NCBI GenBank assembly: GCA_963674945.2
Contig: CAXXWQ010000004.1
Span: 640,001-704,000 of the forward strand
DNA length: 64,000 nt
Origin: an uncultured Desulfosarcina sp.
GTDB taxonomy: Bacteria; Desulfobacterota; Desulfobacteria; Desulfobacterales; Desulfosarcinaceae
Direction: 5' to 3'
This document shows, piece by piece, positions 3-52,568 of the stretch. The stretch's first letter is position 1. Each line of letters opens with the position of its first letter. The position numbers and the translations under genes are program-made. The notes under the pieces are model-generated. The model saw only the letters and a program-made list of their open reading frames with translations. It did no database searches and had not been told where the DNA came from.

Positions 3-293
3 TGCAGTGTTCTATCCAACACCACCCGTTTGATGGTGATGTGGCTTCTGGCAGACGGTGAAAAATCGGTCACAGAACTGGCGAACGCTTTGGAAATCTC
101 TGTTCCGAACGTTTCGCAACATCTTCGTATCATGAGGGACAAAGGGGCCGTACTTACCCGAAAGGAAGGGCAGAGCGTTTATTACCAGATTTCCAATCCG
201 AAATTTATCGAAGGGTGCAGGTTGATAAGAGAGGGAATACTGGAACAGAGAATCCTCGGAATGGAGGAACTCTCAACATCCATTGAAAAATAA
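3..293 (+). CDS. ArsR/SmtB family transcriptional regulator (5' partial)
   Basis: Frame is open from the window edge (CSVLSNTTRLMVMWLL); HTH segment SVTELANALEISVPNVSQHLRIMR followed by RKEGQSVYY. Confidence 0.9.
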   Translation, partial: CSVLSNTTRLMVMWLLADGEKSVTELANALEISVPNVSQHLRIMRDKGAVLTRKEGQSVYYQISNPKFIEGCRLIREGILEQRILGMEELSTSIEK

Positions 294-312
294 AAACCAT
301 TGGAGGCAATCG

Positions 313-1671
313 ATGAAAAAAGGCGAAAAACTTGTAATTATCGGATGCGGTGGAGTGGGCGGACCCGCCGCGATGCTATCCAGAAAGCTTATGCCGGACG
401 TGGATATCACACTGATCCGGGCCGACAAACGCTTTATTGTCAGGTGAGCCCTACCGCATGTGGTGGCCGGTCTGGTCACCCCGGAATCCATCGTTAACCC
501 GGACACGATGTTCTCCAGCAATAACATCAATCTCGTTATCGACAGGGCAAAGCACGTAGATGCCAAGGGGAAAAAAGTGACAACCGCGGATGGACGAGAG
601 TTCCCATATGACAAGCTTATCCTGAGCACGGGTGCCAGTCCCTTCGTGCCGCCCATTGAGGGACATGACCATAAAGGGGTGTTTACCCTGCGATCATTGA
701 GCGACGCCGAAACAATAAAAGGGTTTCTCGGCAACGCAAAACCAAAAAAACTCGTTTTTATCGGCTCCGGCTTTATCAGTCTTGAGGTTGCAAGCCTCCT
801 TTCAACAATGCACCCGAACGCTTATGATATCACCGTGATCGAACTCCTCAATCATCCGCTTCCGCTCATGCTCGACCCGGAGATGGGCAAAGAAGTCCTG
901 GATTTCCTGCAGGAAAAAGGTGTCAAGATGGTAATGGGTCGTAAGGTAGAGAAGGTCCTGGGACAGAAAGGATCGGTTTCCGGAGTTGAGCTGGATGGCG
1001 GCGAAAAGATGGACGCCGACATGGTCTTCATGAATGTAGGCGCACGTCCCAACCTTGAGCTGGCCAGCGAAATCGGACTCGAGATGGGACGTTTCGGGAT
1101 CAAGGTCAACAAATTCATGGAGACTTCTGATCCGGATATACTGGCCGGAGGCGACTGCGTGGAAAAGGAACACTTCATTACGAAACAACCCGTTCCCGGC
1201 CCTCTGCGTGGACCTGCGGTGATACAGGGGCGGCTCGCCGCGAAGAGACTGGCCGGTTTCGGAATCGAGTTCCCCGGAGTGCTGAACAGCTCGGCGTGCC
1301 AGATTTTTGAAAAAAGCATCGCCGCTACCGGCCTGACCGAGGAGCAGGCACAAAAAGAGGGCTTCGAAACGGTAAGTGCCACCGTTGCGTCCCGCAGCAA
1401 GCACGGCATGATACCGGGAATGAAACCCTGGACGCTGAAGCTTGTTTTCGATAAAAAAACGCAAAAGCTGATCGGTGGGCAGATCATAAGCGACAATGAA
1501 GCCCCAGCCAAGGAAATCGATAATATCAGCGCGCTGATTTTAGGGGGAAAAACAATCCCCGATCTAACCACTTTGATGTGTGCCGGAAATCCGGATTTGG
1601 CTTCCGAGCCAAGCCTTGAACCGATTACCGTTGCGGCGGAGCAGGCTTTACAGAAAGTGCGCAATGCATAG
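313..1671 (+). CDS. NADH oxidase/CoA-disulfide reductase family flavoprotein, probable selenoprotein (TGA 445-447, codon 45)
   Basis: GGAGG RBS then ATG 313; N-terminal Rossmann motif LVIIGCGGVG; FIVR*ALPHV puts TGA at the redox-Cys position, in frame with the 460-1671 ORF; second motif GSGFISLE. Confidence 0.9.
462..480 (+). promoter_or_regulatory. Candidate bacterial SECIS hairpin
   Basis: GGTGGCC-GGTCT-GGTCACC; G-initiated loop about 21 nt after the TGA. Confidence 0.65.
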
Positions 1672-6550: not shown

Positions 6551-6597
6551 TGGAATATTTCCAATTTGATAAAGTATTATCTTGACACTCTGGAATT
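6551..6597 (+). promoter_or_regulatory. Composite operator/promoter upstream of methyltransferase operon
   Basis: TGGAATATTTCCA-N17-CTTGACA-N3-TGGAATT. Confidence 0.75.
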
Positions 6598-6784
6598 AAA
6601 TATGATAGGAGAAACAATCGTCTTTGCTGCAGACAACTATGAATTTTCATGGTTTTTGCTTCCGTCGCAAGAAATATCATCACCGATATTTATTCTTAAT
6701 TATGAAGACACTCCCAAACAAGGTAACAAGAAGGCCTTAAAAATCAATTTGCAGTTCTTGATATTTGAAAGGAGGAAGGTAGAC

Positions 6785-8020
6785 GTGGCTACGAAAAAAA
6801 GATTGGCACAATTTGGAGAGATGCAGGGTGCGCCGGACTGGTACGGCACTCCCCTGGACGAAATTCATTTCGAATGGTCCCCCGAAGAAGAAGTAGAAAT
6901 TGAGCGCTACTGCGAAAAAATCCTAAAAAACATCGAAGAAGAAGGTGGGATGACCCCCGCCGAACGGTTTAAGGCGACATTCGAGAATAAACCGAGAGAT
7001 CGTGCGCTGGTTTACGTTTTATACGGCAACGTATTCGGATCCAAAGTTCTGGATTCCGAAGCCAATGCCATTATGCCTATCGACATTTACAAATACCCGA
7101 AACTGTGGGTCAAAGTGCACCTGGCCGCCGTCGCCCGATTTAAGTTAGACTTTGCCAATTCTTACGGGATCGCCTATGGCGAGGAATTCTATCGTGCCAA
7201 TGCCATGATGATCGAATATGGCAACCCGGTTATCGCCGAAGATCCCAAAATAAAGACAATGGAGGACCTTGAAGGTATTGTGGCGCCCGATCCCAAGCTG
7301 GATGGATTGTATCCGGGATACCTCTGGGCCAACCGCGAGCTGCGACGCATCTATGACAAATATGGTCTGACCGGCAAGATGTGTATGATGCCACGCATCT
7401 GCGGTGATCCGCATTCCATCGTCATGATGTACATGATGGGCTACGCAGGATTTGCCAAGGCTCTGCGAAAGAATAAGGAGTTGGCCATAAAATGCCTGGA
7501 AATCGCCACCGAATGGGAGATCGCCTATGGAAAGGCCGTTCAGGAAGCGGCCCAGGCCGAATCACTTTACATGTGTGCAATGACAGGCGCCCAGCCTCCG
7601 AAAGGCTACGAGTGGCTGGCAGAATACTGGGCCAAGGTCGGCCAGGCTTTGGCTCCCAAGTCCTGGAATATTTACGGTTACGGCTATGCGGGAGCACTCC
7701 AATGGCTGGACATCCTCAAGGAAAATGGTGCATTGGGTGACGGCACCTTCCGTGGCGGGCTCCACGATTACCAATGTCCCTTCAAACCGATGATCGACTG
7801 GCATCGGGATAATGAACTCACCCTCTTCAGTATGAACTCAGACAAGACACTTTTGGATGGGCCGATTTCCAAGATCGAAGAAGAGGTCAAAGAGATTGTC
7901 GAATACGGCAAATCCTATAACGGATTCGGCATCGCAATCGGCATGGTGGACTACTGGACCCCATTTGCCAACCTGGATGCTGCAGTTGCAGCCGCCAAGA
8001 AATACGGCCGAACCGAATAG
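6785..8020 (+). CDS. UROD/MtaA-CmuA fold corrinoid methyltransferase (Cys form)
   Basis: GGAGG RBS and GTG 6785; MTPAERFKA..DR motif; C-terminal TPFANLDAAVAAAKKYG; adjacent to a corrinoid protein. Confidence 0.85.
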   Translation: MATKKRLAQFGEMQGAPDWYGTPLDEIHFEWSPEEEVEIERYCEKILKNIEEEGGMTPAERFKATFENKPRDRALVYVLYGNVFGSKVLDSEANAIMPIDIYKYPKLWVKVHLAAVARFKLDFANSYGIAYGEEFYRANAMMIEYGNPVIAEDPKIKTMEDLEGIVAPDPKLDGLYPGYLWANRELRRIYDKYGLTGKMCMMPRICGDPHSIVMMYMMGYAGFAKALRKNKELAIKCLEIATEWEIAYGKAVQEAAQAESLYMCAMTGAQPPKGYEWLAEYWAKVGQALAPKSWNIYGYGYAGALQWLDILKENGALGDGTFRGGLHDYQCPFKPMIDWHRDNELTLFSMNSDKTLLDGPISKIEEEVKEIVEYGKSYNGFGIAIGMVDYWTPFANLDAAVAAAKKYGRTE

Positions 8021-8198: not shown

Positions 8199-8849
8199 AT
8201 GTCACAAGAGCTTCTGGATAAAATAAAAGAGGCCATGATTGAGCTTGAGGATGATGACATCGTGGAGCTGCTCGACCAGGGACTTGAAGCGGGTGTGCCT
8301 CCCATGGAAATGATCACACATGGACTGGCCCCCGGCCTGACCGATATCGGTGATGGATTTGAAAAGGGCGTGCGGTTCATGAATGACCTGGTGCTGGCAG
8401 GTGAGATCATGAATGATTCCATGGAGAAACTACGCCCGATTTTGGAAGGCAGCGGCGGATCCAAAGGCGAGACCATGATCATCGGAACTGTCGAAGGTGA
8501 CCAGCATAACATCGGCAAACGAATCGTTGGCGCTCTTTTCACCGGTGCAGGATATACGGTAATCGATATTGGTGAGAACCAGCCGGCCAGTGAGTTTGTG
8601 AAGGCGGCAAAAGAGCATAAGGCGAAAGTGGTGGGCGCCTCGGCTATTCTCGGTCCTCTGAAATCCTATTGTAAAGTTATCAACGATGCTCTCGTTGAAG
8701 CCGGAATAAGAGAGGATTTGGTCTACGTTATCGGCGGTTGGGGCATGACCGACGAGTGGGCCGACAAAACCGGAGCCGACTGCGTTGGTGAGAACGGTGT
8801 CGAAGCCGTCACCAAGGTTCAAGAGTTTCGGGCCCACAAAGGATTATAA
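8199..8849 (+). CDS. Methyltransferase cognate corrinoid protein (MtaC/MttC-like)
   Basis: Helical cap domain plus GTVEGDQHNIGK (DxHxxG), VGASA, IGG. Confidence 0.92.
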   Translation: MSQELLDKIKEAMIELEDDDIVELLDQGLEAGVPPMEMITHGLAPGLTDIGDGFEKGVRFMNDLVLAGEIMNDSMEKLRPILEGSGGSKGETMIIGTVEGDQHNIGKRIVGALFTGAGYTVIDIGENQPASEFVKAAKEHKAKVVGASAILGPLKSYCKVINDALVEAGIREDLVYVIGGWGMTDEWADKTGADCVGENGVEAVTKVQEFRAHKGL

Positions 8850-10065: not shown

Positions 10066-10965
10066 ATGTTTGAATTCGCTACGGAACAGAAAGTATTCGA
10101 TATCGCCGGCGTCAAAGTCGGCGGCAAGCCCGGAGAGAACCCTTCCGTCATGATCGGCAGCATGTTCTTCCGCGGTCACAAGATCGTCAAGGATACCGAT
10201 AAAGGAATCTTCGATAAGGACAAAGCCAAGGCATTGCTGGACAAAGAAGAAGAATTGTCGCTGAGTACCGGCAATCCGCGCATCATCGATGTCATCGGAG
10301 ATACCGGTGAGGCATTGATCAACTATATCGAGTGGGTGGCGGCCAATACCACCTCTCCCATCCTGGTGGACTCTGCCATGCCCAAGGCACGCATGGAGGC
10401 CATCCGGCATTTTGCCGGAAGCGAGCTTATCCCCCGTCTGATCTACAATTCCATGGAGGGGCACTATAAAGAAGATGAAATGGAGTGTATCGCCGAATGC
10501 GGTATCAAGAGCGTGGTGATTCTTCCCCTGACCACCAAGGCGATCAAGCCGAAAGCCAGGTTCAAACTGCTCAAGGAGAACATGTATCCCGCGGCGAAGA
10601 AAGCTGGGCTGGAAAACTTTCTGATCGACCTTGGCATACTGGATATCCCCAGCGTCGGTTGGGCCACCCAGGCCGCCCAGCTGGTGAAAAATGAGCTTGG
10701 TTTGCCGTGGGGCTGTGCACCATCGAACGCCATTTATCTGTGGAAGAAACTGCGTGAACGCGGCACACCGGCCTTCGAAGCCACCGCATCCGTTGTTTAC
10801 GCATTACCGCTTTGCTGGGGGGGCAGCTTCATCTTTTACGGTCCGACCCGAAACGCAAAATGGTTTTATCCGGCGGCAGGGGCAGTCGATGCCATACTGG
10901 CCTACGGTGGAATGAACATGGGGCTTCGCCCCGGCCAGGATCACCCCCTCTTCAAGATTTTTTAA
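10066..10965 (+). CDS. MtrH-family methyltransferase (probable methylcorrinoid:tetrahydrofolate MT)
   Basis: MFEFATEQKVFDIAGVKVGGKPGENPSVMIGSMFFRGHKIV is the MtrH-type N-terminus; LIYNS; GCAPSNA. Confidence 0.88.
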   Translation: MFEFATEQKVFDIAGVKVGGKPGENPSVMIGSMFFRGHKIVKDTDKGIFDKDKAKALLDKEEELSLSTGNPRIIDVIGDTGEALINYIEWVAANTTSPILVDSAMPKARMEAIRHFAGSELIPRLIYNSMEGHYKEDEMECIAECGIKSVVILPLTTKAIKPKARFKLLKENMYPAAKKAGLENFLIDLGILDIPSVGWATQAAQLVKNELGLPWGCAPSNAIYLWKKLRERGTPAFEATASVVYALPLCWGGSFIFYGPTRNAKWFYPAAGAVDAILAYGGMNMGLRPGQDHPLFKIF

Positions 10966-14794: not shown

Positions 14795-14835
14795 AAAGAA
14801 GCCGCGGCTGTCGAATGACAACCGCGGCTTCTTTT
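14795..14835. terminator. Bidirectional intrinsic terminator
   Basis: aaagaagccgcggctgtc-gaat-gacaaccgcggcttctttt between convergent genes. Confidence 0.8.
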
Positions 14836-14853: not shown

Positions 14854-15543
14854 CTATTTGTTTCTCTCTACCCACCGTGCCATTTTACCGTCGAAAATCG
14901 CTTTTACCTTATCCAGCGCCTCAAAAGCGGTTTCGCCATAAGTGTCGGCGCCAATCTCGTCACACCACTCGGGCGTCATGCCCCAGCCGCCGGTGATATA
15001 GATCACGTCGTCTCTGACGCCGGCTTCGACCATTGCCTTGTGGATGACCCCGCAATAGGGTGTTACCGGACCGATGATGGCAGATGCGCCTACGATATCG
15101 GGCTTGTACTTCTTGATCGCTGCGACAAAATCGTCGGCAGACTTGTTCTCGCCAATGTCGATGGACTTGATGCCTGCCCCGGAAAAGAAGGCGGAAACGA
15201 TTCTCTTGCCGACATTGTGAAGATCACCCTCCACCGTGCCGATGATCATCACCTTATCCTCCGGCTTCCGATTCGTGATGGAGGCTTCGACATCCGCCGT
15301 CGGAAGCAATGTCTCCATGGCGTCGTTCATGATCTGTCCGGATATCATAAGGTCACTCATGAACCGATCATTGGCCTCGTACTCATCACCGATGATGGTC
15401 AGCCCGGGGCTTAACCCCTTAACGATAACATCCAAGGCTGGAATATCGGCATCCATACACTCCTTAACCAACTCTTTGACCAAATCATCATCCAGATCGA
15501 TGATCGCCTCTTTTATTTTCTCAAGTATTTCTTCATTTGCCAT
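14854..15543 (-). CDS. Methyltransferase cognate corrinoid protein
   Basis: GTVEGDLHNVGK; close paralog of 46248-46937. Confidence 0.92.
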   Translation of the reverse strand: MANEEILEKIKEAIIDLDDDLVKELVKECMDADIPALDVIVKGLSPGLTIIGDEYEANDRFMSDLMISGQIMNDAMETLLPTADVEASITNRKPEDKVMIIGTVEGDLHNVGKRIVSAFFSGAGIKSIDIGENKSADDFVAAIKKYKPDIVGASAIIGPVTPYCGVIHKAMVEAGVRDDVIYITGGWGMTPEWCDEIGADTYGETAFEALDKVKAIFDGKMARWVERNK

Positions 15544-15563
15544 TTGGTTCACACCCTTTTATT

Positions 15564-15717
15564 TTGATGCTCTCGTAAAAAGTCGCTGTTCAGACGGATT
15601 CGTAAAAAGCCCGAGATCAAGGCTTGCGAATCCTGAGAAATGAGGCGTATTTACGATACTCCACAGTGACGAAGGGTGAAGCGTAACGCCGATATCGGAC
15701 TTTTTAGGAATCCGTCT
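15564..15717. mobile_element. MITE-like element (same TIR family as 8862) with a doubled left end
   Basis: TTGATGCTCTCGTAAAAAGTC then AGACGGATTCGTAAAAAGCCCGA ... TCGGACTTTTTAGGAATCCGTCT (21/23 match). Confidence 0.65.
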
Positions 15718-15745
15718 ATTTTAATTCGGCTATAAACCCTTGATT

Positions 15746-16993
15746 CTACTCGTACCTTCCGTATTTCTTGATGGCGTCGATACAGGCTTTGGAATGCTCC
15801 GGCGGCGTAAAGTATGTCGGAACACCTACCGGAAAAAATTTGGGCATGTGCTTGTACTTCAAGACGAGTTCTTTGTTTGCTGCATCGATTTCGGATATGG
15901 GTCCATTTTCCAGGATCTCGTCTTTGATCGACATCTGACAATAACACTCGTGTTCGTGCATCCAATTGGCCGCTTTGTCCGGATCCGCCTCGCCCCAAGA
16001 TCCCAACACGCCGTTGTATCGCTCACCGGCCGGTCCAAGTCCACCATGTTCCCACATAATGGGATATGCTCTCAACGCACCGGTCATATACCCATGGCCA
16101 TAGCTTAAATGTATCGGTCTTCCCAGTCTTTCTTTCGCATACTGGCTCCAGTTTTCTCCAACTTGCCTGTAGTAATCTACAATCCATTCGTTGCCACGCA
16201 ACGGAAATGAGTCCCAGAGCTCTCACGTGTATATCGCATCGGGTTCGACAATATCGATAAACGCCTTGCCGTATCGGGTAAGCCATTCTACTGCTAACTC
16301 ACAGCATCTCTTGACCAGTTCAGGAGCCTTGCGCAGGCTCATGGCAAACTTCTCAAAACCCAGCATCCCCATCATTGGCAACAAGACCGGACCGACGCAC
16401 AAAGAGCCCCATATCGGATGAGGGACGTCATATTTCGCAAAAATTCGCTTTATCTCCCGATAGGCCCAGATATACCCCGGATACAACCCATCCTTCAGTG
16501 GGTCGGCGACTTCCACACCTTCCAGGTCGTCCATCGATTTGATAGGAGGCTCACCTTCCAGAACAGGGTTGCCGAAATCGATCATCTTCGATTGGCCACC
16601 CCACAGATCCTCACCATAGGTGATCGCGTGATAAGGTCCGACATCCGGTGCAAATCGGGCAATGGATGCCAGCATTGCTTTTACCCACAGCTTCGGGTAC
16701 TGGTAAATGTCGACAGGAATCAACGCATCCCTGTGACCATCATAGGTTCTTGCGGTATGGGGTGGACCTCCCCACAACGTAGTCGCCATGCGGTCCTTGT
16801 CTTTTCCCCACAACATCGCGTTAAACCGCTCTTTCGGGGTCATTCCCCCTTCTGCCGCAATGTCTTTGAGGATCTTTTGGCAATAGCGCTCGATCTCCAG
16901 TTCTTCTTCCCGACTCCACTCGAAATCGAGATCTTCGAATGGTGTGTCATACCAATAGGGAGTGGGTTGGATTGGCTTTCTTCCCGGCCACAT
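15746..16993 (-). CDS. UROD/MtaA-fold corrinoid methyltransferase, candidate selenoprotein (TGA 16225-16223, codon 257)
   Basis: ORFs 16223-16993 and 15746-16201 are one frame: PDAIYT*ELWDSFPLRGNEW; joined length 415 aa equals the Cys paralog at 49110; downstream hairpin. Confidence 0.85.
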
Positions 16994-19120: not shown

Positions 19121-19293
19121 TCCAATATCAATTATAATAAGCTCATCAAAAAGTCAGTAAATTAGGTTTTTTGCACAATATGTAATTTCATATGGTTTCA
19201 GAGTCCTAAAACAATAATTTCGACTGTTTACTGTTGTCAATTGGGAAAAATGCAATCAAAAACAATCTTTTACCAGGTAGGAGGAACTTTTAC

Positions 19294-20733
19294 ATGGCCG
19301 TATCATTTCATAAAGCACATCACCCGCTGTATTATGATCTTGCGGGGATAGTCGGTCCGGACTATGTCTCCGACGAGGACTTCGTGCTGGAGACCTACAG
19401 CAAAGACACCAGTTATTTGCCACCAAACAAACAGGGCGTTGTGGCACGCCCCGAAAGTACCGATCAGGTGCAGGATATCGTCAAGCTGGCCAATACGACC
19501 AAGATTCCCATCGTCATCAGCGGTGGAAGAGCTTCCTTCTACGGCACGCCCAAAGGATTGCACGGGAGGGCCATCGTAGTCGATATGACCCGAATGAGAA
19601 AAATGCTGGATATCGACGAGGAGAACCTGGTTGCGACTGCCGAAGCCGGCATGACCATTGCTGAGTTAACCACGCATCTCTGGGATGCTGGCTGGGATTG
19701 TCATACTGCGCTTCAGCCCTGGTATTCGGATACGATCGGCGGGCAGATCGCCGGTTTCGCCGGCGGCGGCGCCGGACTGGAACTGGCATATGCCGGATTC
19801 AATGCCATTCATATCCCCGGGGTAAAAGTGGTTCTCGGAAATGGCGAAGTGGTTCAAACCGGAGCCGGGGCCGGATGTAATATCATGAACAAGATGGTTT
19901 ACGATCCCTATCCCGGAACGCCGAATCTCGGGGGGATGTTCATGGGCTCTGCCGGAACCTTCGGGATTGTAACCGAAGCGACGTATCGGATGTACAGGCT
20001 CTCGCCCCATAAGGTTTCATACGGATACTTTTACGACAGCTTCGATGACGCCTGGGAGGCGATCAAGGAAATCAGTGTCGTAGAGCCCCTTCCTTACATG
20101 ACCGTTGCCCTTATTCCACCGACTCAACTGACGGAGATGCAGGGCATGAACAGATATCTCGTTCCCATGGTTTCCAAAGGGTGGACGGAAGAGGAAGCAA
20201 AACTCAAGGAAAGAATCTGCAGAGAGATACATGAGAAGCACGGGGGCGAGGTCGCCAAGGGGGGAATCGTTGACGAATGGTTGCACCACGTTCTGACCGG
20301 TCAACGGTACAGGGAGATGGGCGAGTTCGGTACGCCGGGCACATGGTCTTTCTTTGAATATTATGCTTCCCGTTCCCAAACCGCGGACTGCCATTACAAA
20401 ATGAAGAAGTTCATCTATGACAGGCTTAAAAAGCATGATATCAAGCATGTGTCAAACGAGGGCTGCGTTGCCACCGGTTCCGCCGCCTGGATCCTTACAT
20501 TCATCATATGGGTCGAGGGAGAAGATGAGAAATCACGGCAAGTGATGCAGGATCTTTTTTCCGATGCCACCGAATATGCCTGTTCCAACGGCTGGTATCC
20601 TGATTGCCATCAGGGCTGGGGTACCCGCTGCATGGCCAAGTACTGGCCCACACATCATTATGAGTTCATGAAGACGCTCAAAAAGGCGATGGACCCGAAC
20701 AGCATCATGAACCCCGGTGTCTGGAATCTATAG
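19294..20733 (+). CDS. GlcD-like FAD-binding oxidoreductase
   Basis: GGAGG RBS; ARPESTDQV, DTIGGQI, GTFGIVTEAT, MDPNSIMNPG. Confidence 0.9.
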   Translation: MAVSFHKAHHPLYYDLAGIVGPDYVSDEDFVLETYSKDTSYLPPNKQGVVARPESTDQVQDIVKLANTTKIPIVISGGRASFYGTPKGLHGRAIVVDMTRMRKMLDIDEENLVATAEAGMTIAELTTHLWDAGWDCHTALQPWYSDTIGGQIAGFAGGGAGLELAYAGFNAIHIPGVKVVLGNGEVVQTGAGAGCNIMNKMVYDPYPGTPNLGGMFMGSAGTFGIVTEATYRMYRLSPHKVSYGYFYDSFDDAWEAIKEISVVEPLPYMTVALIPPTQLTEMQGMNRYLVPMVSKGWTEEEAKLKERICREIHEKHGGEVAKGGIVDEWLHHVLTGQRYREMGEFGTPGTWSFFEYYASRSQTADCHYKMKKFIYDRLKKHDIKHVSNEGCVATGSAAWILTFIIWVEGEDEKSRQVMQDLFSDATEYACSNGWYPDCHQGWGTRCMAKYWPTHHYEFMKTLKKAMDPNSIMNPGVWNL

Positions 20734-20739
20734 TAAGAG

Positions 20740-21948
20740 GTGAAAAGAATGGAACTAGAAAAGCAAAAAAGAGGTATCTACAGCTGCACCCGTTGTGGTG
20801 TGTGTGTACATAAGTACGGTCCCTATGGAACCAAAAGGGTGTGCCCCATCCGGGAGCATACCGCAGGACATGAACCCTATGCAAACCGGGGAAGAATCCA
20901 GGTTGCCAGGGGCGTGCTGGAAGGAACTATAGAAATAACCCCCAAGTTGGCCGAAGTTGCCTACACTTGTCTGCTTTGCGGTAACTGTCGGCAGGCCTGC
21001 GGCTCGCTGGACCTTCAGAACGATTTAAAACCAAAGATCATTCAACCCCACATCAACAAGGCGTTGCGGGCGGATTTATATGAGTCCGGCATTGAACTTC
21101 CCGATGCGGTACACCAGTTTTGCGATACCGTTGAGAAGACCCAGAATGTCATGGGGTATGCGAATGAAGATAGGGCCGAATGGGCCGAAGAGGAAGATAT
21201 AAAACTCGATCCCAATGCCGACCTCATTTATTTTGTCGGTTGTCTGACGAGCTTTCGGGAAGTTGAAATCGCCCAGGCGGTGGGTAAGATTCTCAACATC
21301 CTGGACATCCCCTTCAACATCCTGGGAGAGGAAGAGCACTGCTGCGGCAATCCCATGCTGATGATGGGCAACCTGTTTCTGGCCAAGGATTTGATGCGGC
21401 ACAACTATGAGCTGATGAAGGGCAAGAAAGTCGTTGCCTCCTGTGCCGGCTGCTATCGCATCCTTCTTCAGGATTACCCCAAGATGCTGAAGCTGGAAGG
21501 CGATGATTATAAGATCGAACCCATACACATCGTGCAGCTGCTGGCCGAACAGATCGAACAGGGCAAGGTGAAGTTCACCAAAGAGATCAACAAGACCGTA
21601 GTCTATCACGATCCTTGCGAACTGGGTCGGGACACGCAGACCTACGATGCGCCGCGACAGATTCTCGAGGCCATTCCCGGGCTCAAACTCGTGGAGTTCG
21701 AGGCCAATAAGGAACAGACTTGGTGCTGCGGCGGCGGCGGCGGTGTGAAAGGCACGAACTATGACCTTGCTGTGGAGATTGGATCCGACAAAGTCAAACA
21801 GGCCAACGACGTCGGCGCTGAGATGATCGTATCCGCCTGCCCTTCCTGCAAGAGAAACATCATCGACGGCATCAATCTCGTTGGATCTGATCTGGATACG
21901 CTGGACGTTCTGGAACTGTGTATTGAAGCTGGGATCACAAAAGCATAA
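20740..21948 (+). CDS. GlcF/HdrD-like Fe-S oxidoreductase with CCG domains
   Basis: CTRCGVC, CLLCGNCRQAC, CCGNP, CCGGGGG. Confidence 0.9.
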   Translation: MKRMELEKQKRGIYSCTRCGVCVHKYGPYGTKRVCPIREHTAGHEPYANRGRIQVARGVLEGTIEITPKLAEVAYTCLLCGNCRQACGSLDLQNDLKPKIIQPHINKALRADLYESGIELPDAVHQFCDTVEKTQNVMGYANEDRAEWAEEEDIKLDPNADLIYFVGCLTSFREVEIAQAVGKILNILDIPFNILGEEEHCCGNPMLMMGNLFLAKDLMRHNYELMKGKKVVASCAGCYRILLQDYPKMLKLEGDDYKIEPIHIVQLLAEQIEQGKVKFTKEINKTVVYHDPCELGRDTQTYDAPRQILEAIPGLKLVEFEANKEQTWCCGGGGGVKGTNYDLAVEIGSDKVKQANDVGAEMIVSACPSCKRNIIDGINLVGSDLDTLDVLELCIEAGITKA

Positions 21949-21965
21949 TGTAAGGAGAATGAAAT

Positions 21966-22412
21966 ATGCCGAAGATTGGTAAGTATTGGGTAGACAAGGA
22001 TCTTTACTACTGGCCCCATGACACCGCGCACAGCTGGGCGAAAAATGAAGACGGTAAAATCAGAGTGGGCGTCGACGACTTTGCTCAGAAGCAGGCCGGA
22101 GAACTCAAGTTTATGAGACTTTTCCCCGCCGGTAAGAAAGTGAAGCAGGGAAAACGGTTCGGAACCCTGGAGACGGCCAAGTGGGTCGGCCCATTGTTGT
22201 CGCCTGTAAACGGAACGATCGTAGAGACCAACCAGGCGGTTCTGGACCAGCCGACGCTGGTCAACGAAGACCCTTATGGCGATGGCTGGCTGGTGATTAT
22301 CGAGCCGTCCGACATAGATGATGATATGACCCGGCTGGTGAAGGGAGACTCACCCGAAGCTGCCGAATGGATGAAGAAAGACATCACTGAGATCGCCAAG
22401 GAAAATGTGTAA
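21966..22412 (+). CDS. gcvH: GcvH/LbpA-like lipoyl-carrier protein (type B)
   Basis: RVGVDDFAQKQAG, LETAKWVGP, VNEDPYGDGW. Confidence 0.88.
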   Translation: MPKIGKYWVDKDLYYWPHDTAHSWAKNEDGKIRVGVDDFAQKQAGELKFMRLFPAGKKVKQGKRFGTLETAKWVGPLLSPVNGTIVETNQAVLDQPTLVNEDPYGDGWLVIIEPSDIDDDMTRLVKGDSPEAAEWMKKDITEIAKENV

Positions 22413-22787
22413 TAACGTACTTCACCTGCACCGCAGGTGGTAATAAAAAGCCCCCTCGAAAGAGGGGGCAATAAAACGGCGGCATACACAATCCCAACGA
22501 TCGTGGCATAAATTTCGCCATTTATCTATAGGTTCTTCCTCCATTTTCGTCCTTTTGGCTTTTCGGAGGGAGAGCCTATTTATGCTCATAGGATCGGCAG
22601 AACCGTATGCGTCCACGACGAAACGTGGGTGGCGAATGCCTGACGGTAAGAGCCTCGATATTATACTAACGGGAGCCCATAATAGCATCCGCACCTTACT
22701 GTTCGCAGCTCATGGGAAGTGTAAGAAGTATTACAGGCAAAGGGCTTCAGGGGCTGATGCTACTTGTTCATAATGAAGAGGGATAGA

Positions 22788-24224
22788 ATGGAGAAAAACA
22801 TCAATTCGCAACTGTCCAAGATCGTAGGAGAGGAAGATATCGCTACCGATGCTTTTGAGAGAATGCTCTACAGCCACGACATAGCGCCTCTTCCGAGCCT
22901 TCTATCATCAGTATTCAAGACCATTCCGGATGCTATTGCCCGACCCGAAAGCAGCCAGGAGCTGGCGCAAATAATGCGCTTGGCTTCACAGCACGAGGTG
23001 CCGGTGGTCCCGAGAGCTGCCGCATCGTGGGCTTTGGGTGGCGTCATCCCTACGAAAGGCGGCATTGTTCTGGATCTGGTAAAGTTAAACAGAATTATCG
23101 CATTGTCCGTCGACGAATCATGGGTCGAAGTCGAAGCCGGCGTCATATTCAAGAATCTGATGACCTACCTGTCGGATAAGGGGATGGCCGTATTGTCCTG
23201 TCCGACCAGCGCACCTTCTTCTACCATTGGCGGCTGGGTCAGCACCGGTGGCAACGGCCTAGGTTCATTGAAATATGGGCCGATCCGTGAACAGGTGATG
23301 GAGCTTGAGATCGTCACGCCCACAGGTGAAATCAGGAGGGTTTCCAGGGACTCCACGGGTCCGAACATCGATTGGTTTTTTGGAACGGAAGGCCAGTTTG
23401 GTGTAATTACCAAGGTGAAGCTGAAAATACGCAAAAAGCCCGAAAAACAAATTGTCCGCGGTTTGTATACGACGGGACACAAAGAGCTGGCACAGTTGGT
23501 AGCTGAATTAAAAGGGCTTCCATATGTTCTGATAGCTCTCGATTCGGATCTGATGTCCTTCAAGGATAAACTGCACGACAGAAAAACAAAAGGGAAAAAT
23601 CTGTTGCTGGCTGTCTTTGAAGGGACTGAAAAGGATGTCGATTCCGCTGTGAGTGCCTTCGACGGCATTGTCCAGAAAAGAGGACTGCAAGACATCGGGG
23701 AACATCTTGCCATGGAAGAGTGGGAAGAAAGGTATCAACCGATGAGAGTCGGCAAGCTGGGCCCCACGCTCCTTTCAGGAGAGTTCAGTGTCCCGATTGA
23801 TCAACTGCAGCCTGTGCTTGACAAAATCAAAGTGCTTCAAAAGAAAAGCGGCATGAAAATCGGGGTGGAGGTACAGGTAATTTCCCAAAAATCGGCGTTG
23901 GTATTGGCGATGTACCTTACTGACGAGAGAAAGCCGATCAGGTATTTAATCCATATGGGACTCGTTGCAGATATAAACAATATCGGATTCTCCCACGGAG
24001 GGCAACCTTACGGAATGGGCATATGGAATTCCTTCTCCCTGAAAAAGCTTTACAGCAGGGAGCAAATAAAGAAACTGAAACGTGCAAAGAAAGAACTCGA
24101 TCCGAAGGGGATAATGAATCCCGGTAAGTTTTTCAAAGCCGAAACCCAGTTCGGAATATCCATTCCCCCGATACTTTTTGACACCTCAATGAAGGCTCTG
24201 AGCGTTGCCCGACGATTCCTGTAG
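22788..24224 (+). CDS. FAD-binding oxidoreductase (GlcD/lactate dehydrogenase-like, second type)
   Basis: PDAIARPES, STIGGWVSTGG, GTEGQFGVIT, LDPKGIMNPGK. Confidence 0.9.
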   Translation: MEKNINSQLSKIVGEEDIATDAFERMLYSHDIAPLPSLLSSVFKTIPDAIARPESSQELAQIMRLASQHEVPVVPRAAASWALGGVIPTKGGIVLDLVKLNRIIALSVDESWVEVEAGVIFKNLMTYLSDKGMAVLSCPTSAPSSTIGGWVSTGGNGLGSLKYGPIREQVMELEIVTPTGEIRRVSRDSTGPNIDWFFGTEGQFGVITKVKLKIRKKPEKQIVRGLYTTGHKELAQLVAELKGLPYVLIALDSDLMSFKDKLHDRKTKGKNLLLAVFEGTEKDVDSAVSAFDGIVQKRGLQDIGEHLAMEEWEERYQPMRVGKLGPTLLSGEFSVPIDQLQPVLDKIKVLQKKSGMKIGVEVQVISQKSALVLAMYLTDERKPIRYLIHMGLVADINNIGFSHGGQPYGMGIWNSFSLKKLYSREQIKKLKRAKKELDPKGIMNPGKFFKAETQFGISIPPILFDTSMKALSVARRFL

Positions 24225-24235
24225 GAGAGACAGAC

Positions 24236-25408
24236 ATGGAAATTTCAGATCTCAAGAAATATAGCATTGATATTGACCCTTTGGTTTGTGTCCAGTGTGG
24301 TTATTGCCGCACCGTTTGCCCCATATTCGAGCAAATTCCCTGGGAGTCGGCTTCACCTCGAGGAAAGCTTTTTTATTTGAAGGAGCTTGTTCGAAAAGGC
24401 GCCTCAGAGCTTGATGAAGACTTTGCCAATCGCCTGTTCCAATGCACGCTGTGCGGTCGTTGCGAGGAGGTGTGTCAGCTTGCCATTAAAACCGAGGATA
24501 TGTGGCGAAAGGTCAGAGCTGCCGTATATGAAGCCGGCAAGAGCCCCGAGCCGATCATGGCGATGGACGGGGGACTTGCGGAAAAACAGAACCCATATGG
24601 TTCGGACTCATTTTTACGTGACATGTGGACCGACTTTATGGATGATGACGAAATTCCGGATAAGGAAACGGCACACACCATATTCTTTGTCGGCTGCACG
24701 TCGGCCCTCAAAGCGCAGACCCAGGATATTCCCGCGGCAGCGGCGCGTATTCTTAATTGCGCCGGTGAGGATTGGACGTTTTTAGGTGAGGACGAGGTGT
24801 GCTGCGGTTCACCCAATATGATGGTAGGCAATCTGGAAAAAGCGAAAGATCTTGCCAGACAGAATACGGAGCAATTTGAAGCAAGGGGCGCCAAGAGAAT
24901 TGTAACGAATTGTCCCGGCTGTTACCGGGCCCTGGAGAAATATTCGGAGATGCTCGGGCGTAAGCTTGACTTTGAAGTACTTCACCTTACCGAGCTTGTC
25001 AGTCGATATCTGAAGGAAGGGCGTATTAAAGTAAAAGAGAAGTATAAGGAAAAAATCATCTATCATGATCCTTGCGAGCTGGGACGCCTGAGCGGCATAT
25101 GCGAAGACCCCAGAGCGATTCTGAAGGCAATCACGGACCAGCCCGTTGACTTTCCGGAGAACAGGGCAGACAGCCAGTGTTGTGGTGGAGGCGGATTGCT
25201 TATGGCGGTAGACGGTGATTTGCGTCTTCGGATCGGAGAGAACAAAGCCAAAGTGGCAAAAAAGATGGGCGCCGATATCATCACATCGGCCTGTCCGTCC
25301 TGCAAAATGGTACTTGACGATGCCGCAAAGAGCTTGAAAACCGGCGCAAAGGTGCTCGACATAATGGAGCTCTTGGCTGAAAAACTGGAAGACCCTGCTG
25401 AAGAGTAG
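24236..25408 (+). CDS. HdrD/GlcF-like Fe-S oxidoreductase with CCG domains
   Basis: CVQCGYCRTVCP, CTLCGRCEEVC, CCGSP, CCGGGG. Confidence 0.9.
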   Translation: MEISDLKKYSIDIDPLVCVQCGYCRTVCPIFEQIPWESASPRGKLFYLKELVRKGASELDEDFANRLFQCTLCGRCEEVCQLAIKTEDMWRKVRAAVYEAGKSPEPIMAMDGGLAEKQNPYGSDSFLRDMWTDFMDDDEIPDKETAHTIFFVGCTSALKAQTQDIPAAAARILNCAGEDWTFLGEDEVCCGSPNMMVGNLEKAKDLARQNTEQFEARGAKRIVTNCPGCYRALEKYSEMLGRKLDFEVLHLTELVSRYLKEGRIKVKEKYKEKIIYHDPCELGRLSGICEDPRAILKAITDQPVDFPENRADSQCCGGGGLLMAVDGDLRLRIGENKAKVAKKMGADIITSACPSCKMVLDDAAKSLKTGAKVLDIMELLAEKLEDPAEE

Positions 25409-25725: not shown

Positions 25726-27647
25726 TGGAACCTGACAATGTATGAAAAGTGCAGAATCGATTTACAGCCAATCGGCAGGCGGATCAGTGCCGACTACGAG
25801 ACGACGATATTTCAGGCGGCTCGAGACTATGGCATAGGCCTGGCGTCCCTTTGCGGCGGCAAAGGGACTTGCGGCAAATGCAAAGTTCGCATCTTGTCCG
25901 GCGAAGTGTCGCCCCCGGACGAAAGAGAAAAGAAGTCTTTGAGCGGTGAAGAGATCGGTCAAGGATATCGGCTTGCGTGCCTGACCAGGATATACGGAGA
26001 CGTCAAGGTCGAAGTTCCGTTGGAGTCGCTTGAAGATTCCCAACGGGTACATCTTGTCGGTGATGAAAAGAGTACTCTGAACGATCCGGTTGTCGAGATC
26101 GTTGATATCCAACTGTCGCGCCCGGGAAAGGACGACAACCGATCGGATCAACTCAGAATCGCCGACTATCTGGCTGCGCATTGCGACAAAAAAGATATCC
26201 GTTTAGATCTTTATGCACAACGTCGATTGTCAACGATCCTGCGGGACAATGAGTGGCATGCAAAAATCGGTCTGCATGGAAACGAGGTGGTTTCCGCAGG
26301 AAAAGCCGATGATCGGGTGCTTGGGCTTGCCGTGGATTTGGGAACGACCTCCATTGCCGCGTACCTGACCGACCTGGAGACGGGAGAAGTCCTGACGGCC
26401 AAGGGTGTGATGAACCCCCAGATCGCCTACGGCGAAGATATCGTGAGCCGTATCTCCTATGCCATCGAAAATGATGGGGATACACTGCGCAAGGTAGTGG
26501 TGGAAGGCATCAACAAGATCGTCAAAGGGGCGTGCGCCGATACGGGCCAGGACCCGGATAGTATCGTGGAAGTGGTGCTGGTGGGCAACACGGCCATGCA
26601 TCACCTCTTTCTCGGTCTTCCCGTTAAACAGTTGATCATGGCGCCGTACACCCCCATCGCCTCAGGTTCACTTTACACGAAAGCCAGGGATATCGGCCTT
26701 GCCGTCGCCCCCGGAGCATATGTATACACGATGCCCAACATCGCCGGTTTCGTGGGTGCCGACCACGTATCCATGCTCCTGGCCACGGGTATCGCCGACA
26801 GCGACAAAACCGTCATCGGCATCGACATCGGAACGAACACCGAGATCACGTTGGTGGCCAATGGGAAGCTAAGCTGCTGTTCCTGTGCTTCGGGACCGGC
26901 TTTTGAGGGAGCGCATATCAAAAATGGCATGCGTGCCATGGCCGGCGCCATCGAAAAGGTCAAGATCAACGGCGATTCCGTTATCTTGCAGACCATCGAC
27001 GGCAAACCGCCCATCGGTTTGTGCGGCTCGGGCATTCTCGATGCAGCAGCGCAATTGTTGGAAACGGGAATCATCAATGCCAAGGGCAGAATGAACGCCC
27101 ATCCCTGTATCCGTGATTCCGAAAAAGGGAAAGAGTTCGTCCTTGCCAGTGGTGAACAAAGCGGTACCGGAAAGGACATCACGCTTACCGGCAAGGACTT
27201 GAGTGAAATTCAACTGGCCAAAGGTGCCATCGGTTCCGGGATGAATATCCTTCTGGAGCAAGCCGGCGTCCATTGGCAAGACGTCGAGGAGGTGATCATC
27301 GCCGGCGCCTTCGGCAACTATATTGATGTGGCCAGCGCGATCCGTATCGGGATGCTGCCACCGCTTGACCTTGACCGTTATTCTCAGGTGGGAAACGCGG
27401 CAGGCGTGGGTGCGAAACAGGCATTGATATCCAAGTCGCAGCGCCGTATGTCGATGGATATCGCCCGTCGGGTGAATTATGTGGAACTAACGAGTTTTCC
27501 GGGATATCCAAAAGTGTTTGCACAAGCCCTCCGGTTTTCTCCGGAAACGAATTGGAAAGATAGCAGAGGATAAGATTTATGGAAAAAGTGCAAGTACTCG
27601 TTATCGGCGGAGGCCCTGGAGGGTATGTAGCCGCCATCAGGGCAGCG
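25726..27647 (+). repeat. 1.9-kb inverted repeat, copy 1 (copy 2 at 41114-43035)
   Basis: Identical 611-aa translations on opposite strands; paired coordinates sum to 68761. Confidence 0.9.
25738..27573 (+). CDS. RACo/RamA-type ATP-dependent corrinoid reductive activator (2Fe-2S + ASKHA)
   Basis: CGGKGTCGKC..RLAC; VDLGTTS; DIGTNTE; GPAFEG; AGAFG. Confidence 0.92.
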   Translation: MYEKCRIDLQPIGRRISADYETTIFQAARDYGIGLASLCGGKGTCGKCKVRILSGEVSPPDEREKKSLSGEEIGQGYRLACLTRIYGDVKVEVPLESLEDSQRVHLVGDEKSTLNDPVVEIVDIQLSRPGKDDNRSDQLRIADYLAAHCDKKDIRLDLYAQRRLSTILRDNEWHAKIGLHGNEVVSAGKADDRVLGLAVDLGTTSIAAYLTDLETGEVLTAKGVMNPQIAYGEDIVSRISYAIENDGDTLRKVVVEGINKIVKGACADTGQDPDSIVEVVLVGNTAMHHLFLGLPVKQLIMAPYTPIASGSLYTKARDIGLAVAPGAYVYTMPNIAGFVGADHVSMLLATGIADSDKTVIGIDIGTNTEITLVANGKLSCCSCASGPAFEGAHIKNGMRAMAGAIEKVKINGDSVILQTIDGKPPIGLCGSGILDAAAQLLETGIINAKGRMNAHPCIRDSEKGKEFVLASGEQSGTGKDITLTGKDLSEIQLAKGAIGSGMNILLEQAGVHWQDVEEVIIAGAFGNYIDVASAIRIGMLPPLDLDRYSQVGNAAGVGAKQALISKSQRRMSMDIARRVNYVELTSFPGYPKVFAQALRFSPETNWKDSRG

Positions 27648-38026: not shown

Positions 38027-38911
38027 TTACACATATTGTTCTTTGAGAAGTTCTCCTGATTTGTAGGAGCTTCGAACAAAGGGCGCCGATGCGATGGCAC
38101 GGAATCCCATTTTTTTGCCTTCGGCTTCCAGTTCTTGGAATTCCTCCGGGGGAATGAACCTTACGACCGGGGCATGATTTTCCGATGGACGCAGATATTG
38201 ACCGATGGTGAGAAAATCACAGTCGACGCGCCGTAGATCTTCCATTACGGCAAGAAGCTCCTGCCTGGTTTCACCCAGCCCGACCATCAGCCCTGACTTG
38301 GTGATCACCTCTTTTTCCATCTGCTTGACATCGGAAAGGATTGTGAGAGATCGCCGGTAGTTGGCCTTTGGTCGCACTTCCTGATACAGACGGGGTATGG
38401 TCTCCAGGTTGTGGTTGAAAACATCCGGCTTTTCTCCAGCTACCATTTCCACGGATTCTTTGGACCCTTGAAAATCCGGTACCAGCACTTCGACGGTTAT
38501 CTTTTTTCCGATTTCGCGAATGGCGCGGATGGTCCGGACAAAGTGATCCGCCCCGCCATCCGGCAAATCATCCCTTGTCACGGATGTGACCACCACATGG
38601 GCCAGCCCCAACTCATACGATGCCGTTGCGATCCGCTCCGGTTCATCCGGGTCCAGGAGCCCGGGACATCCGCCCTCTACCGCACAGAACCGGCAGTTCC
38701 GGGTGCAGACGTCGCCCATGATCATGAAGGTGGCCGTTCTCTTGGAAAAACACTCACTTTGATTGGGGCAAAGGGCGCTCTGGCACACGGTGTGAAGTTT
38801 AAGCCGCGAAAGGGTCCGGCGCACCTCATTAAAATGCTTGCCCTGGCAGATTGGTCTGACCAGCCAGCCCGGCAATCGTTGCGATTGATCTTGTAACGTA
38901 TCTCGATCCAT
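38027..38911 (-). CDS. lipA: Lipoyl synthase
   Basis: CX4CX5C (CQSALCPNQSEC), CTRNCRFC, C-terminal RSSY. Confidence 0.96.
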   Translation of the reverse strand: MDRDTLQDQSQRLPGWLVRPICQGKHFNEVRRTLSRLKLHTVCQSALCPNQSECFSKRTATFMIMGDVCTRNCRFCAVEGGCPGLLDPDEPERIATASYELGLAHVVVTSVTRDDLPDGGADHFVRTIRAIREIGKKITVEVLVPDFQGSKESVEMVAGEKPDVFNHNLETIPRLYQEVRPKANYRRSLTILSDVKQMEKEVITKSGLMVGLGETRQELLAVMEDLRRVDCDFLTIGQYLRPSENHAPVVRFIPPEEFQELEAEGKKMGFRAIASAPFVRSSYKSGELLKEQYV

Positions 38912-38913
38912 AT

Positions 38914-39735
38914 CTATCCTGCCTTTAACGGGGCAGTGGGATTGTACTTCTCTTCGAGCAATGTCCTGCTTACATCTTCCTCATATGAAGATAAGGTATC
39001 TTCGAAGAATCGAATCCCAAACGCGTCTTGAAAACCCTGGAAAAGGGCTTCTTTCATCTCTTGCCGGTCGACCTTCCTGCCTAACAATTCGGTAATGCCG
39101 GTGGCTCTTTTTCTGAATACGGCCACTGCCCTTTCCCTTCTCTTGCTGGAAGAGAAATTCAAAACGGAAAAGATAAGTGGCACATCGAGGGTGATGGGAA
39201 GCGAGCCGTGTTGCAGCAGCACATCGCCCCTTCGGTACTGTGCGCTTCCAGCCACCTTTCGGCCCCGACACGTCAGATCGCCGAAGCTGGCAGCATTAAA
39301 ACAGGCTGCCGGGGCAGAATCTTCGCGATGGGGGGCGAGGCTGACATCCAGACCCAAAATCTTGTATGCGGCGATCAGTCCCTGACTGATTGCCTTATAA
39401 GATTTTGATACGCCATAGGGGAAACCACACTTTCCGGAAGCCACGACGCTGTAAGTGACTTCATCTTTATGCAAAACAGATCGCCCACCGGTTGCCCGGC
39501 GGACGATGTCGATGCCGTTTTCAAGACATTTCTGCTCGTCGATATCCTTTTTTATATTCTGAAAGTAGCCCACTGTCAGCGCAGCGGGCTCCCACTCGTA
39601 TACCCGCAACGTCGGCGGCGTCATGTCCAGTTCATGGACGCGAAACATCGCCTCGTCGATCGCCATATTGGTGAATCCATCGTTGATTCCAGTGTCGATA
39701 AAACGCCATTTCGTCTGCAGTGCTTTTTGAACCAT
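38914..39735 (-). CDS. Lipoate-protein ligase / octanoyltransferase (LplA/LipM-like, single domain)
   Basis: NMAIDEA, VRRATGGRSVLH, KVAGSAQ, LQHGS. Confidence 0.92.
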   Translation of the reverse strand: MVQKALQTKWRFIDTGINDGFTNMAIDEAMFRVHELDMTPPTLRVYEWEPAALTVGYFQNIKKDIDEQKCLENGIDIVRRATGGRSVLHKDEVTYSVVASGKCGFPYGVSKSYKAISQGLIAAYKILGLDVSLAPHREDSAPAACFNAASFGDLTCRGRKVAGSAQYRRGDVLLQHGSLPITLDVPLIFSVLNFSSSKRRERAVAVFRKRATGITELLGRKVDRQEMKEALFQGFQDAFGIRFFEDTLSSYEEDVSRTLLEEKYNPTAPLKAG

Positions 39736-39796
39736 GGTGTTATCTTCTGTGTACCAACAGGCTTTCGGGTTTCCTGTTCGCTCCTTTTGTGAAATC

Positions 39797-43162: not shown

Positions 43163-44062
43163 TTAGAAAATCTTAAACAGCGGGTGATCCGGACCGGGTC
43201 GCAGCCCCATGTTCATTCCGCCGTAGGCCAGCATGGCATCCACCGCCCCTGCCGCCGGATAAAACCATTTTGCGTTTCGGGTCGGACCGTAAAAGATGAA
43301 GCTGCCCCCCCAGCAAAGCGGCAATGCGTAAACAACGGATGCGGTGGCTTCGAAGGCCGGTGTGCCGCGGTCACGCAGTTTCTTCCACAGATAAATGGCG
43401 TTCGATGGTGCACAGCCCCACGGCAAACCAAGCTCATTTTTCACCAGCTGGGCGGCCTGGGTGGCCCAACCGACGCTGGGGATATCCAGTATGCCAAGGT
43501 CGATCAGAAAGTTTTCCAGCCCGGCTTTCTTCGCCGCGGGATACATGTTCTCCTTGAGCAGTTTGAACCTGGCTTTCGGCTTGATCGCCTTCGTGGTCAG
43601 GGGAAGAATCACCACGCTCTTGATACCGCATTCGGCGATACACTCCATTTCATCTTCTTTATAGTGCCCCTCCATGGAATTGTAGATCAGACGGGGGATA
43701 AGCTCGCTTCCGGCAAAATGCCGGATGGCCTCCATCCGTGCCTTGGGAAGCGCAGAATCCACCAGGATGGGGGAGGTGGTATTGGCCGCCACCCACTCGA
43801 TATAGTTGATCAATGCCTCACCGGTATCTCCGATGACATCGATGATGCGCGGATTGCCGGTACTCAGCGACAATTCTTCTTCTTTGTCCAGCAATGCCTT
43901 GGCTTTGTCCTTATCGAAGATTCCTTTATCGGTATCCTTGACGATCTTGTGACCGCGGAAGAACATGCTGCCGATCATGACGGAAGGGTTCTCTCCGGGC
44001 TTGCCGCCGACTTTGACGCCGGCGATATCGAATACTTTCTGTTCCGTAGCGAATTCAAACAT
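43163..44062 (-). CDS. MtrH-family methyltransferase
   Basis: Differs from 10066-10965 at only a few residues. Confidence 0.88.
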   Translation of the reverse strand: MFEFATEQKVFDIAGVKVGGKPGENPSVMIGSMFFRGHKIVKDTDKGIFDKDKAKALLDKEEELSLSTGNPRIIDVIGDTGEALINYIEWVAANTTSPILVDSALPKARMEAIRHFAGSELIPRLIYNSMEGHYKEDEMECIAECGIKSVVILPLTTKAIKPKARFKLLKENMYPAAKKAGLENFLIDLGILDIPSVGWATQAAQLVKNELGLPWGCAPSNAIYLWKKLRDRGTPAFEATASVVYALPLCWGGSFIFYGPTRNAKWFYPAAGAVDAMLAYGGMNMGLRPGPDHPLFKIF

Positions 44063-46222: not shown

Positions 46223-46247
46223 ACCGTACGAAGTGTCTTTCCGGTTA

Positions 46248-46937: not shown

Positions 46938-46994
46938 TTGGACCAGCCTCCTTTACTTGCACGAAAAAGTTTATGTGCCAATTGAACCCATTAC

Positions 46995-49067: not shown

Positions 49068-49109
49068 TCGCTCTTTTCTCCTTACTATTGGGTATAGACT
49101 TGAGAATGG

Positions 49110-52526: not shown

Positions 52527-52568
52527 TCGCTCTTTTCTCCTTACTATTGGGTATAGACTTGAGAATGG

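Follow-up and report, generated by a model that had tools for sequence, protein, structure and literature searches.

We describe a selenoprotein family that appears to be real and likely unlisted, found through a gene on the minus strand (16993-15746) of the 64-kb stretch of DNA analysed here (the window). Its protein has the fold shared by uroporphyrinogen decarboxylase (URO-D) and the methyltransferase MtaA. Comparison of the gene with its relatives makes it almost certain that the family uses selenocysteine (Sec), and the gene's own in-frame TGA, codon 257, is very probably decoded in the same manner. The product is likely a corrinoid methyltransferase, an activity proposed from its fold, its neighbours and a predicted complex. 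The fold is missing from the most recent selenoprotein catalogue, in that neither PF01208 nor any other UroD/MtaA entry appears among the 119 families of its Table 1 (PMC13188914), and NCBIfam 20.0 holds no model for the family. To the initial annotation, too, it was not known among described selenoproteins. No UroD/MtaA selenoprotein was found by term search in the accessible text of PMC9312934, PMC13326102, PMC1976440 and PMC8318568, and a literature search found no description of the family.

An interrupted frame and its relatives

Translation of 15746-16993 on the minus strand gives 415 codons in a single frame, with the TGA of codon 257 (16225-16223) as the sole internal stop, PDAIYT before it and ELWDSFP after it, and TAG as the terminal stop. 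This bears out the earlier reading of two open reading frame pieces as one frame, whose joined product equals in length the 415-aa paralogue at 49110-50357. Gene callers had been expected to break the gene, and the public annotation indeed lists a 256-aa protein cut at the TGA. The ribosome-binding site is strong, and no convincing promoter was found. Alignment places Cys opposite the TGA in the three window paralogues for which this had been claimed, located at 6566-8020 (plus strand, true start probably near 6785-6821), 45005-46357 (minus) and 49110-50357 (minus, duplicated at 52569-53816). Two further TGA paralogues had gone unnoticed, one at 46995-48248 (minus), whose codon 257 is TGA (47480-47478) and whose SECIS is in the family register, and its exact duplicate at 50454-51707 (minus, TGA likewise at codon 257). 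The 3.4-kb segments 46984-50374 and 50443-53833 form an exact tandem (100% identical), and a 98% direct and an inverted copy lie at 20583-25655/57047-62135 and 25726-27650/41111-43035; these duplications of cluster genes reflect either recent amplification or an assembly artefact.

With the read-through protein as the tblastn query, 15 matches were obtained in the genome holding the window (G000), and the site column contained TGA in five, TGT or TGC in nine and TCT (Ser) in one; the five TGA copies represent four distinct sequences, one being an exact duplicate. An outside set of 27 loci from genomes and metagenomes yielded 39 matches, 32 of which span the site, with TGA in 11, Cys in 21 and TAA or TAG in none. 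These 11 genes are ten distinct ones (L026 repeats L023), the TGA is the only stop within every one of the 11 matches, and identity 3' of the site is similar to identity 5' of it. The initial annotation had proposed counting codons at this column, and among close relatives it is TGA or Cys (one Ser), never TAA or TAG. Downstream of the site, pN (0.19-0.40) lies below pS (0.63-0.80) in 15 of 15 pairs with the window gene. Among database homologues, 17 of 21 stop exactly one residue before the site, and the other four, which are full-length, carry Cys.

In a quick tree of 84 rows, a single branch with a support of 100 holds every one of the 14 TGA rows, together with two Cys genes of G000 and 10 of the 12 rows truncated at the site. 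The two Cys genes, L008 and L009, are nested in this Sec branch next to different TGA genes under midpoint rooting, which suggests two reversions from Sec to Cys. In G000, the Cys versions that fall within the Sec branch, at L008:8181-9425, L009:7143-8393 and L010:7743-8993, have lost the hairpin and are each accompanied by the same corrinoid subtype. Natural Sec and Cys versions are 57% identical within one genome, and such a pair offers a direct test of selenium's role in corrinoid methyl transfer. Outside the main clade, P0026, P0028 and their cluster mates are proteins on other branches that end at the same site, and P0026 and P0028 are possible separate gains of Sec.

The family is rare among the genomes searched: only the window's own genome carried it among 301 of the phylum, four genomes did among 201 of the class, and two, both known already, among 301 of the class of G303. 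Two genomes, G322 and G378, contain selA and homologues that are all non-TGA; these (L063-L086) number eight per genome, are scattered, and in two cases have no Cys at the site.

A pseudogene, split gene, assembly error or genome-wide reassignment of TGA would account for the 256-aa protein listed in databases, yet such explanations are scarcely credible given that the same codon recurs in ten distinct outside genes and three other distinct genes of the genome, and that the Sec gene is also present in contigs of other sequencing runs. Furthermore, the first start codon past the TGA, a TTG at codon 265, falls inside the barrel of the AlphaFold model, and the aligned residue is Cys, never Trp or Gly. 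TGA is still an ordinary stop in G000, where it ends 1640 of 3928 ORFs of at least 300 aa, and recoding of TGA as Trp or Gly was ruled out on this ground together with the Cys at the aligned column. A pseudogene was ruled out by the conserved codon in other genomes, the covariation of the family hairpin and the excess of pS over pN 3' of the site.

The decoding machinery, a search for which had been suggested along with the first reading, is present: G000 encodes selA, selD (with an in-frame TGA of its own), two selB above the cut-off and two tRNA-Sec genes (Rfam 75.4 and 51.3 bits), the selB and tRNA-Sec genes being at loci including G000:C3:439046-440938, C3:570751-572793 and C3:722697-722794. 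The weaker-scoring tRNA-Sec adjoins the second selB, a YeeE-type transporter and a Se/S carrier gene. The two selB/tRNA-Sec sets could serve different SECIS types, or could stem from contamination (5.7%). Both selA and selB were found in G301, a member of the Chloroflexota with two TGA copies; among three Cys-only genomes G302 has both, and none were seen in G303 and G304, these genomes being incomplete.

A filtered screen of G000 for TGA/Cys pairs covered 1888 candidates and lost the window gene itself, so that its yield is no count of the selenoproteome. We take TGA/Cys genes of this screen, by motif, to resemble formate dehydrogenase, MvhD, NiFeSe hydrogenase and an Fe-S oxidoreductase. Two such pairs with hairpins lie in one region (G000:C4:2871152 and C4:2869208, minus strand), with motifs that presumably resemble a multiheme cytochrome and a thioredoxin-fold protein. 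Within the window, a pyridine nucleotide-disulfide oxidoreductase gene (283-1671, plus strand) has a TGA at 445-447 that aligns with Cys and is followed by a G-loop hairpin; it probably encodes a Sec CoA-disulfide reductase of an already listed type.

The predicted SECIS hairpin and its register

The 14 TGA genes share a hairpin with a 7-bp stem and a GUU or GGU loop at nt 24-26 (the T of TGA being 1). In it 94.9% of cells are paired and four of seven pairs show two-sided changes, none of 500 shuffles scored as high in pairing and covariation, and slid controls were 33-54% paired; these statistics concern a structure derived from the same sequences, in which kin are not independent. At least six of the seven pairs are kept in 13 of 14 TGA genes as against 0 of 21 Cys/Ser genes, and a G-loop hairpin of -4 kcal/mol or lower follows the site in 14/14 and 0/21, respectively.

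The window gene is the sole exception in register, with three of the seven family pairs, and is the source of four of the five unpaired cells. Its predicted SECIS hairpin (16185-16209, minus strand) has an upper stem CGUUGC/GCAACG and a GUG loop (16197-16195; nt 29-31) that begins 25 nt past the TGA and lies 5 nt off the family register, the loop G being at nt 29, whereas the family has it at nt 24 and the other TGA/Cys candidates of G000 at nt 21-27. The hairpin described in the initial annotation is therefore present, but it is weak alone and out of register: as a 27-mer it folds at -7.9 kcal/mol (z -2.0), in an 83-nt context its z of -1.46 is by itself not significant, and with three added bases an alternative G-loop fold beats it. 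An Rfam search of the 64-kb window gave no match. The bacterial SECIS model set out in PMC13188914 specifies a loop of 3-9 nt with G first, a stem of 4-16 bp, a spacing of 16-37 nt and an MFE of -7.5 or lower, and the window hairpin falls narrowly within all four limits (3-nt GUG loop, 6-bp stem, 25 nt, -7.9). Contigs from two other studies, with 20 differences in 191 bases and 13 in 212, have no listed change over 16181-16234, where 13 and 9 of the differences are listed, the remainder are taken to fall near the ends of the pieces, and the runs were chosen by shared 31-mers, which biases them toward invariant stretches. No RNA run was listed among the sequencing runs chosen in this way. We consider this unchanged region moderate support for the window hairpin.

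The low number of family pairs, the z scores and the loop lying farther out than in other genes of G000 would also be expected if the family were one of selenoproteins and the window copy had lost its SECIS, so that translation mostly terminated at codon 257 and the shifted hairpin arose by chance; the three other TGA variants and the Cys back-ups in the genome would fit such a loss as well. We judge this improbable in view of the purifying selection 3' of the TGA, the lack of a G-loop hairpin in all 21 Cys/Ser genes, the agreement of the hairpin with the SECIS model and the unchanged region in the two relatives from other studies. Rather, the sequence suggests SECIS turnover, in which the family hairpin has been broken and a shifted one is in place, and this would be a natural case of such turnover within a loop for which a role in docking the partner protein is predicted as well.

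Fold, candidate active site and predicted corrinoid partner

The AlphaFold model of the 415-aa protein (pLDDT 89.7) is a URO-D barrel. Its best Foldseek match is MtaA (4ay7, E 3.5e-13), and VIA-align gives MtaA (Z 31.1, rmsd 2.6, 326 aligned) a tie with true URO-D (Z 31.3). Searches of the ESM Atlas returned URO-D-named clusters only, the profile match to an MtaA-like set had a probability of 100, and phmmer with the single protein against PDB sequences gave no match. The model and structure searches thus confirm the URO-D/MtaA fold first noted. The first reading as a Sec methyltransferase is supported, with the Sec machinery present and TGA or Cys (one Ser) in the site column; it is refined in that the protein is not an MtaA-type zinc enzyme, the zinc triad being absent and the Sec being on another strand.

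In HMMER and profile-profile alignments, residue 257 lies one place ahead of the Asp in the ADVIAIADP strand of MtaA (strand 4), the His-x-Cys positions of MtaA correspond to Tyr298 and His300, and the distal Cys is absent. Across the 14 TGA rows these zinc positions hold Tyr/His-x-His/Tyr, with no Cys there and no distal Cys, and hence the MtaA-type triad is absent. Membership of the MtaA family was rejected for the missing triad and the different strand of the Sec. At the cut-off of TIGR01463/NF004889 (MtaA/CmuA) the window protein had no match, the best family member reached E ~4e-9, and the window paralogues scored 21-24 bits against NCBIfam MtaA/CmuA cut-offs of 235-244.

HemE has a similar fold (Z about 31), and a weak match to PF01208 is the source of the database names, whereas identity to the Sec enzyme is 14-18% and HemE carries an aromatic residue at the strand where the family has its conserved Cys/Sec. 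The C-terminal His of HemE has a catalytic role. Since this His is unaligned in the family alignment, none of 39 family members matched the NCBIfam HemE model, and there is no haem-pathway context, identity with HemE was rejected.

Of the 39 rows of alignment A4, 38 have Cys or Sec at 257 and 36 have Cys199, and both residues are lost in some distant relatives. His122 occurs in all 14 TGA rows and the two nested Cys rows (16 rows), compared with 0 of 23 other rows. In the model, strands 2, 3 and 4 terminate in His122, Cys199 and Sec257, so that a relocated His122-Cys199-Sec257 metal site is possible.

Directly downstream of the Sec gene, 14854-15552 (minus strand) encodes its cognate corrinoid protein (B12-binding_2 + B12-binding), which belongs to the subtype that accompanies Sec-clade genes. 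The two-gene unit ends in a strong terminator-like hairpin of 18 pairs (14795-14834, minus). The sequence between the two genes (15553-15745) contains an intergenic element of about 160 nt with 123 genome matches of at least 80 nt. Other corrinoid proteins are encoded at 8199-8849 (plus strand), 46248-46937, 48417-49067 and 51876-52526. Those by Sec-branch genes form their own subtype, with identities of 67-97% versus 39-53% for the rest. The link is not universal, as no corrinoid gene adjoins the TGA copy L006 in the 91 of 170 ORFs scanned in its locus set.

The predicted complex of the L008 Cys paralogue with its corrinoid neighbour scored 0.70 versus 0.00 for the best of three controls, relative to a mark that 116 of 157 solved pairs and 2 of 215 mismatched ones attain, with a contact agreement of at least 68% and a partner pLDDT of at least 77; this score, obtained with the Cys paralogue, supports binding but may stem from a resemblance to methyltransferase-corrinoid pairs already solved. 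The predicted interface comprises residues 259 and 261-264, which is the loop encoded by the SECIS, with contacts on the cap domain of the corrinoid protein. For the Sec enzyme, docking on its corrinoid neighbour via the loop just past residue 257 is predicted.

Proposed methyl transfer and known systems

The window also contains an MtrH-family, MtgA-like corrinoid:tetrahydrofolate (THF) methyltransferase gene that scores below the MtgA cut-off (10066-10965, plus strand; copy at 43163-44062) and a RACo/AcsV-like corrinoid reductive activator (25738-27573, plus; copy at 41188-43023). A GcvH-like lipoyl carrier with its lipoyl Lys kept (21966-22412, plus; a second type at 44113-44583 and near 9558) is flanked on either side by a pair of FAD_binding_4 oxidoreductase and Fe-S/CCG (HdrD-like) genes (19234-25408, plus). 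Genes for lipoyl synthase, lipoate ligase and a dihydrolipoamide dehydrogenase-like (LpdA-like) protein occupy 38027-41182 (minus), and FadL, MMPL transport and MarR proteins are also encoded. The four components MT I, corrinoid protein, MT II and activator occur together in the window and in G302. The combination of corrinoid, GcvH-like, MtrH, RACo and FAD/CCG genes is found again in loci from Chloroflexota and metagenomes (91 of 168 ORFs scanned). ACS beta was found in five of five genomes tested and dsrA in G000 and G322.

On balance, we favour a zinc-triad-free, substrate-specific methyltransferase that loads a methyl group onto the adjacent corrinoid protein, with a slight preference for the direction from substrate to corrinoid. 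In such an MT I step, the substrate methyl would pass to the Co(I) corrinoid protein, which RACo would hold in the Co(I) state, and the MtgA-like protein would move the methyl to tetrahydrofolate and on into the Wood-Ljungdahl pathway of the sulfate reducer. The reactive group would be Sec257, placed on strand 4 at the mouth of the barrel, either as a methyl-accepting selenolate or as a metal ligand in the relocated site, and the lipoyl carrier and FAD/CCG enzymes may process the demethylated product or electrons. As a guess from the FadL/MMPL transport genes and the lipoyl module, the most likely substrates are methylated compounds of sulfur or selenium, or hydrophobic methyl ethers or thioethers.

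A URO-D-fold selenoenzyme without any methyltransferase role, acting as a decarboxylase, a lyase or a thiol-redox partner of the FAD/CCG enzymes via Cys199/Sec257, is consistent with the tie in fold with URO-D, with the homologues in G322 and G378, which sit near flavin oxidoreductases and have no corrinoid gene among 46 of 72 surrounding ORFs scanned, and with the observation that Sec proteins are mostly redox enzymes (PMC13188914). We find it an improbable explanation for a protein with an adjacent, subtype-matched corrinoid protein, a predicted complex with that protein, RACo and MtrH in its cluster, and an unaligned URO-D C-terminal His.

A transfer in the direction of MtaA would also involve genuine Sec: the corrinoid protein would exchange methyl or alkyl groups with the dithiol of the GcvH-like carrier, the latter serving as a protein-bound coenzyme M, with FAD/CCG (HdrD-like) proteins and LpdA cycling the carrier. 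It draws on GcvH-like genes with the lipoyl Lys, which in the window and in six loci (L007, L011, L017, L028, L037 and L094) are flanked by or adjacent to corrinoid and MtrH genes, on the CCG protein, whose best NCBIfam match is the thiol:fumarate reductase TfrB and whose PDB matches are HdrB, and on the lipoate synthase/ligase and LpdA genes in the cluster; moreover, MtaA, its nearest relative of solved structure, methylates a thiol. Nevertheless, the thiol-activating zinc site of MtaA is missing, the cluster already offers a plain acceptor route in its THF methyltransferase, and a literature search found no paper tying lipoyl carriers to corrinoid methyltransferases, so that we hold this direction to be unlikely. 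In its widest and equally doubtful form, an uncharted anaerobic pathway may be imagined. A selenoenzyme with a relocated His-Cys-Sec site would carry methyl or alkyl groups to and from the corrinoid protein, with the lipoylated carrier in the role of protein-bound coenzyme M and a coupling to HdrD-like/FAD oxidoreductases and THF. Sediment sulfate reducers and Chloroflexota would thereby consume methylated sulfur, selenium or ether compounds, the Sec and Cys versions of one genome would act as a selenium switch, and the window copy would have evolved its SECIS anew in another register.

The favoured corrinoid-loading methyltransferase may be compared with several known systems. The methylcobamide:coenzyme M methyltransferases MtaA, MtbA and MtsA (PDB 4ay7/4ay8; TIGR01463) have the URO-D barrel and a corrinoid partner in common with it. 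Identity between MtaA and the Sec enzyme is 18-20%, and the latter differs in having Tyr298-x-His300 in place of His-x-Cys, no distal Cys and about 50 extra N-terminal residues, and in being bacterial with THF methyltransferase and lipoyl genes nearby. The type 1 mlp clusters of anaerobes (Kountz and Balskus, PMC10418091) likewise combine several UroD-family genes with a corrinoid protein and RACo and have a link to selenium users; type 1 Mlps keep His-Cys-Cys, unlike the Sec enzyme, and their clusters are described without a THF methylase, whereas the window has MtrH/MtgA-like and lipoyl genes. That paper ties UroD-family methyltransferases to selenium metabolism and describes the zinc triad for S-methyltransferases, and its accessible text describes no Mlp as Sec-containing (PMC10418091). 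A Sec at a site other than the known zinc ligand points to a different methyl-transfer chemistry.

The chloromethane:corrinoid methyltransferase CdmB and UroD-type O-demethylase MT I enzymes represent the architecture that we propose for the window, namely a zinc-free UroD MT I, a corrinoid protein, a THF MT II and an activator (PMC13222342); the accessible text of that source contains no mention of Sec and describes no lipoyl module for these systems. The entry 9rui was not among the matches to the profile of the Sec family at E 10. The bacterial selenoprotein methyltransferases already listed, namely arsenite methyltransferase, MduS, methylated-DNA-protein Cys methyltransferase and HgcA, resemble the family in UGA/Cys pairing, a 3' SECIS and methyl chemistry, and differ in having other folds and other Pfam/NCBIfam models.

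Databases list the genes of the Sec family as fragments of 256 aa, named either 'uroporphyrinogen decarboxylase' or hypothetical protein, so that annotation misses a C1 cluster that is conserved in sediment anaerobes. A LipS2-like radical SAM gene followed by lipoate ligase and flavoprotein genes is located at 62451-63584 of the window and at L097:1551-4302, a second route of lipoate assembly beside the LipA-type genes at 38027-39735.
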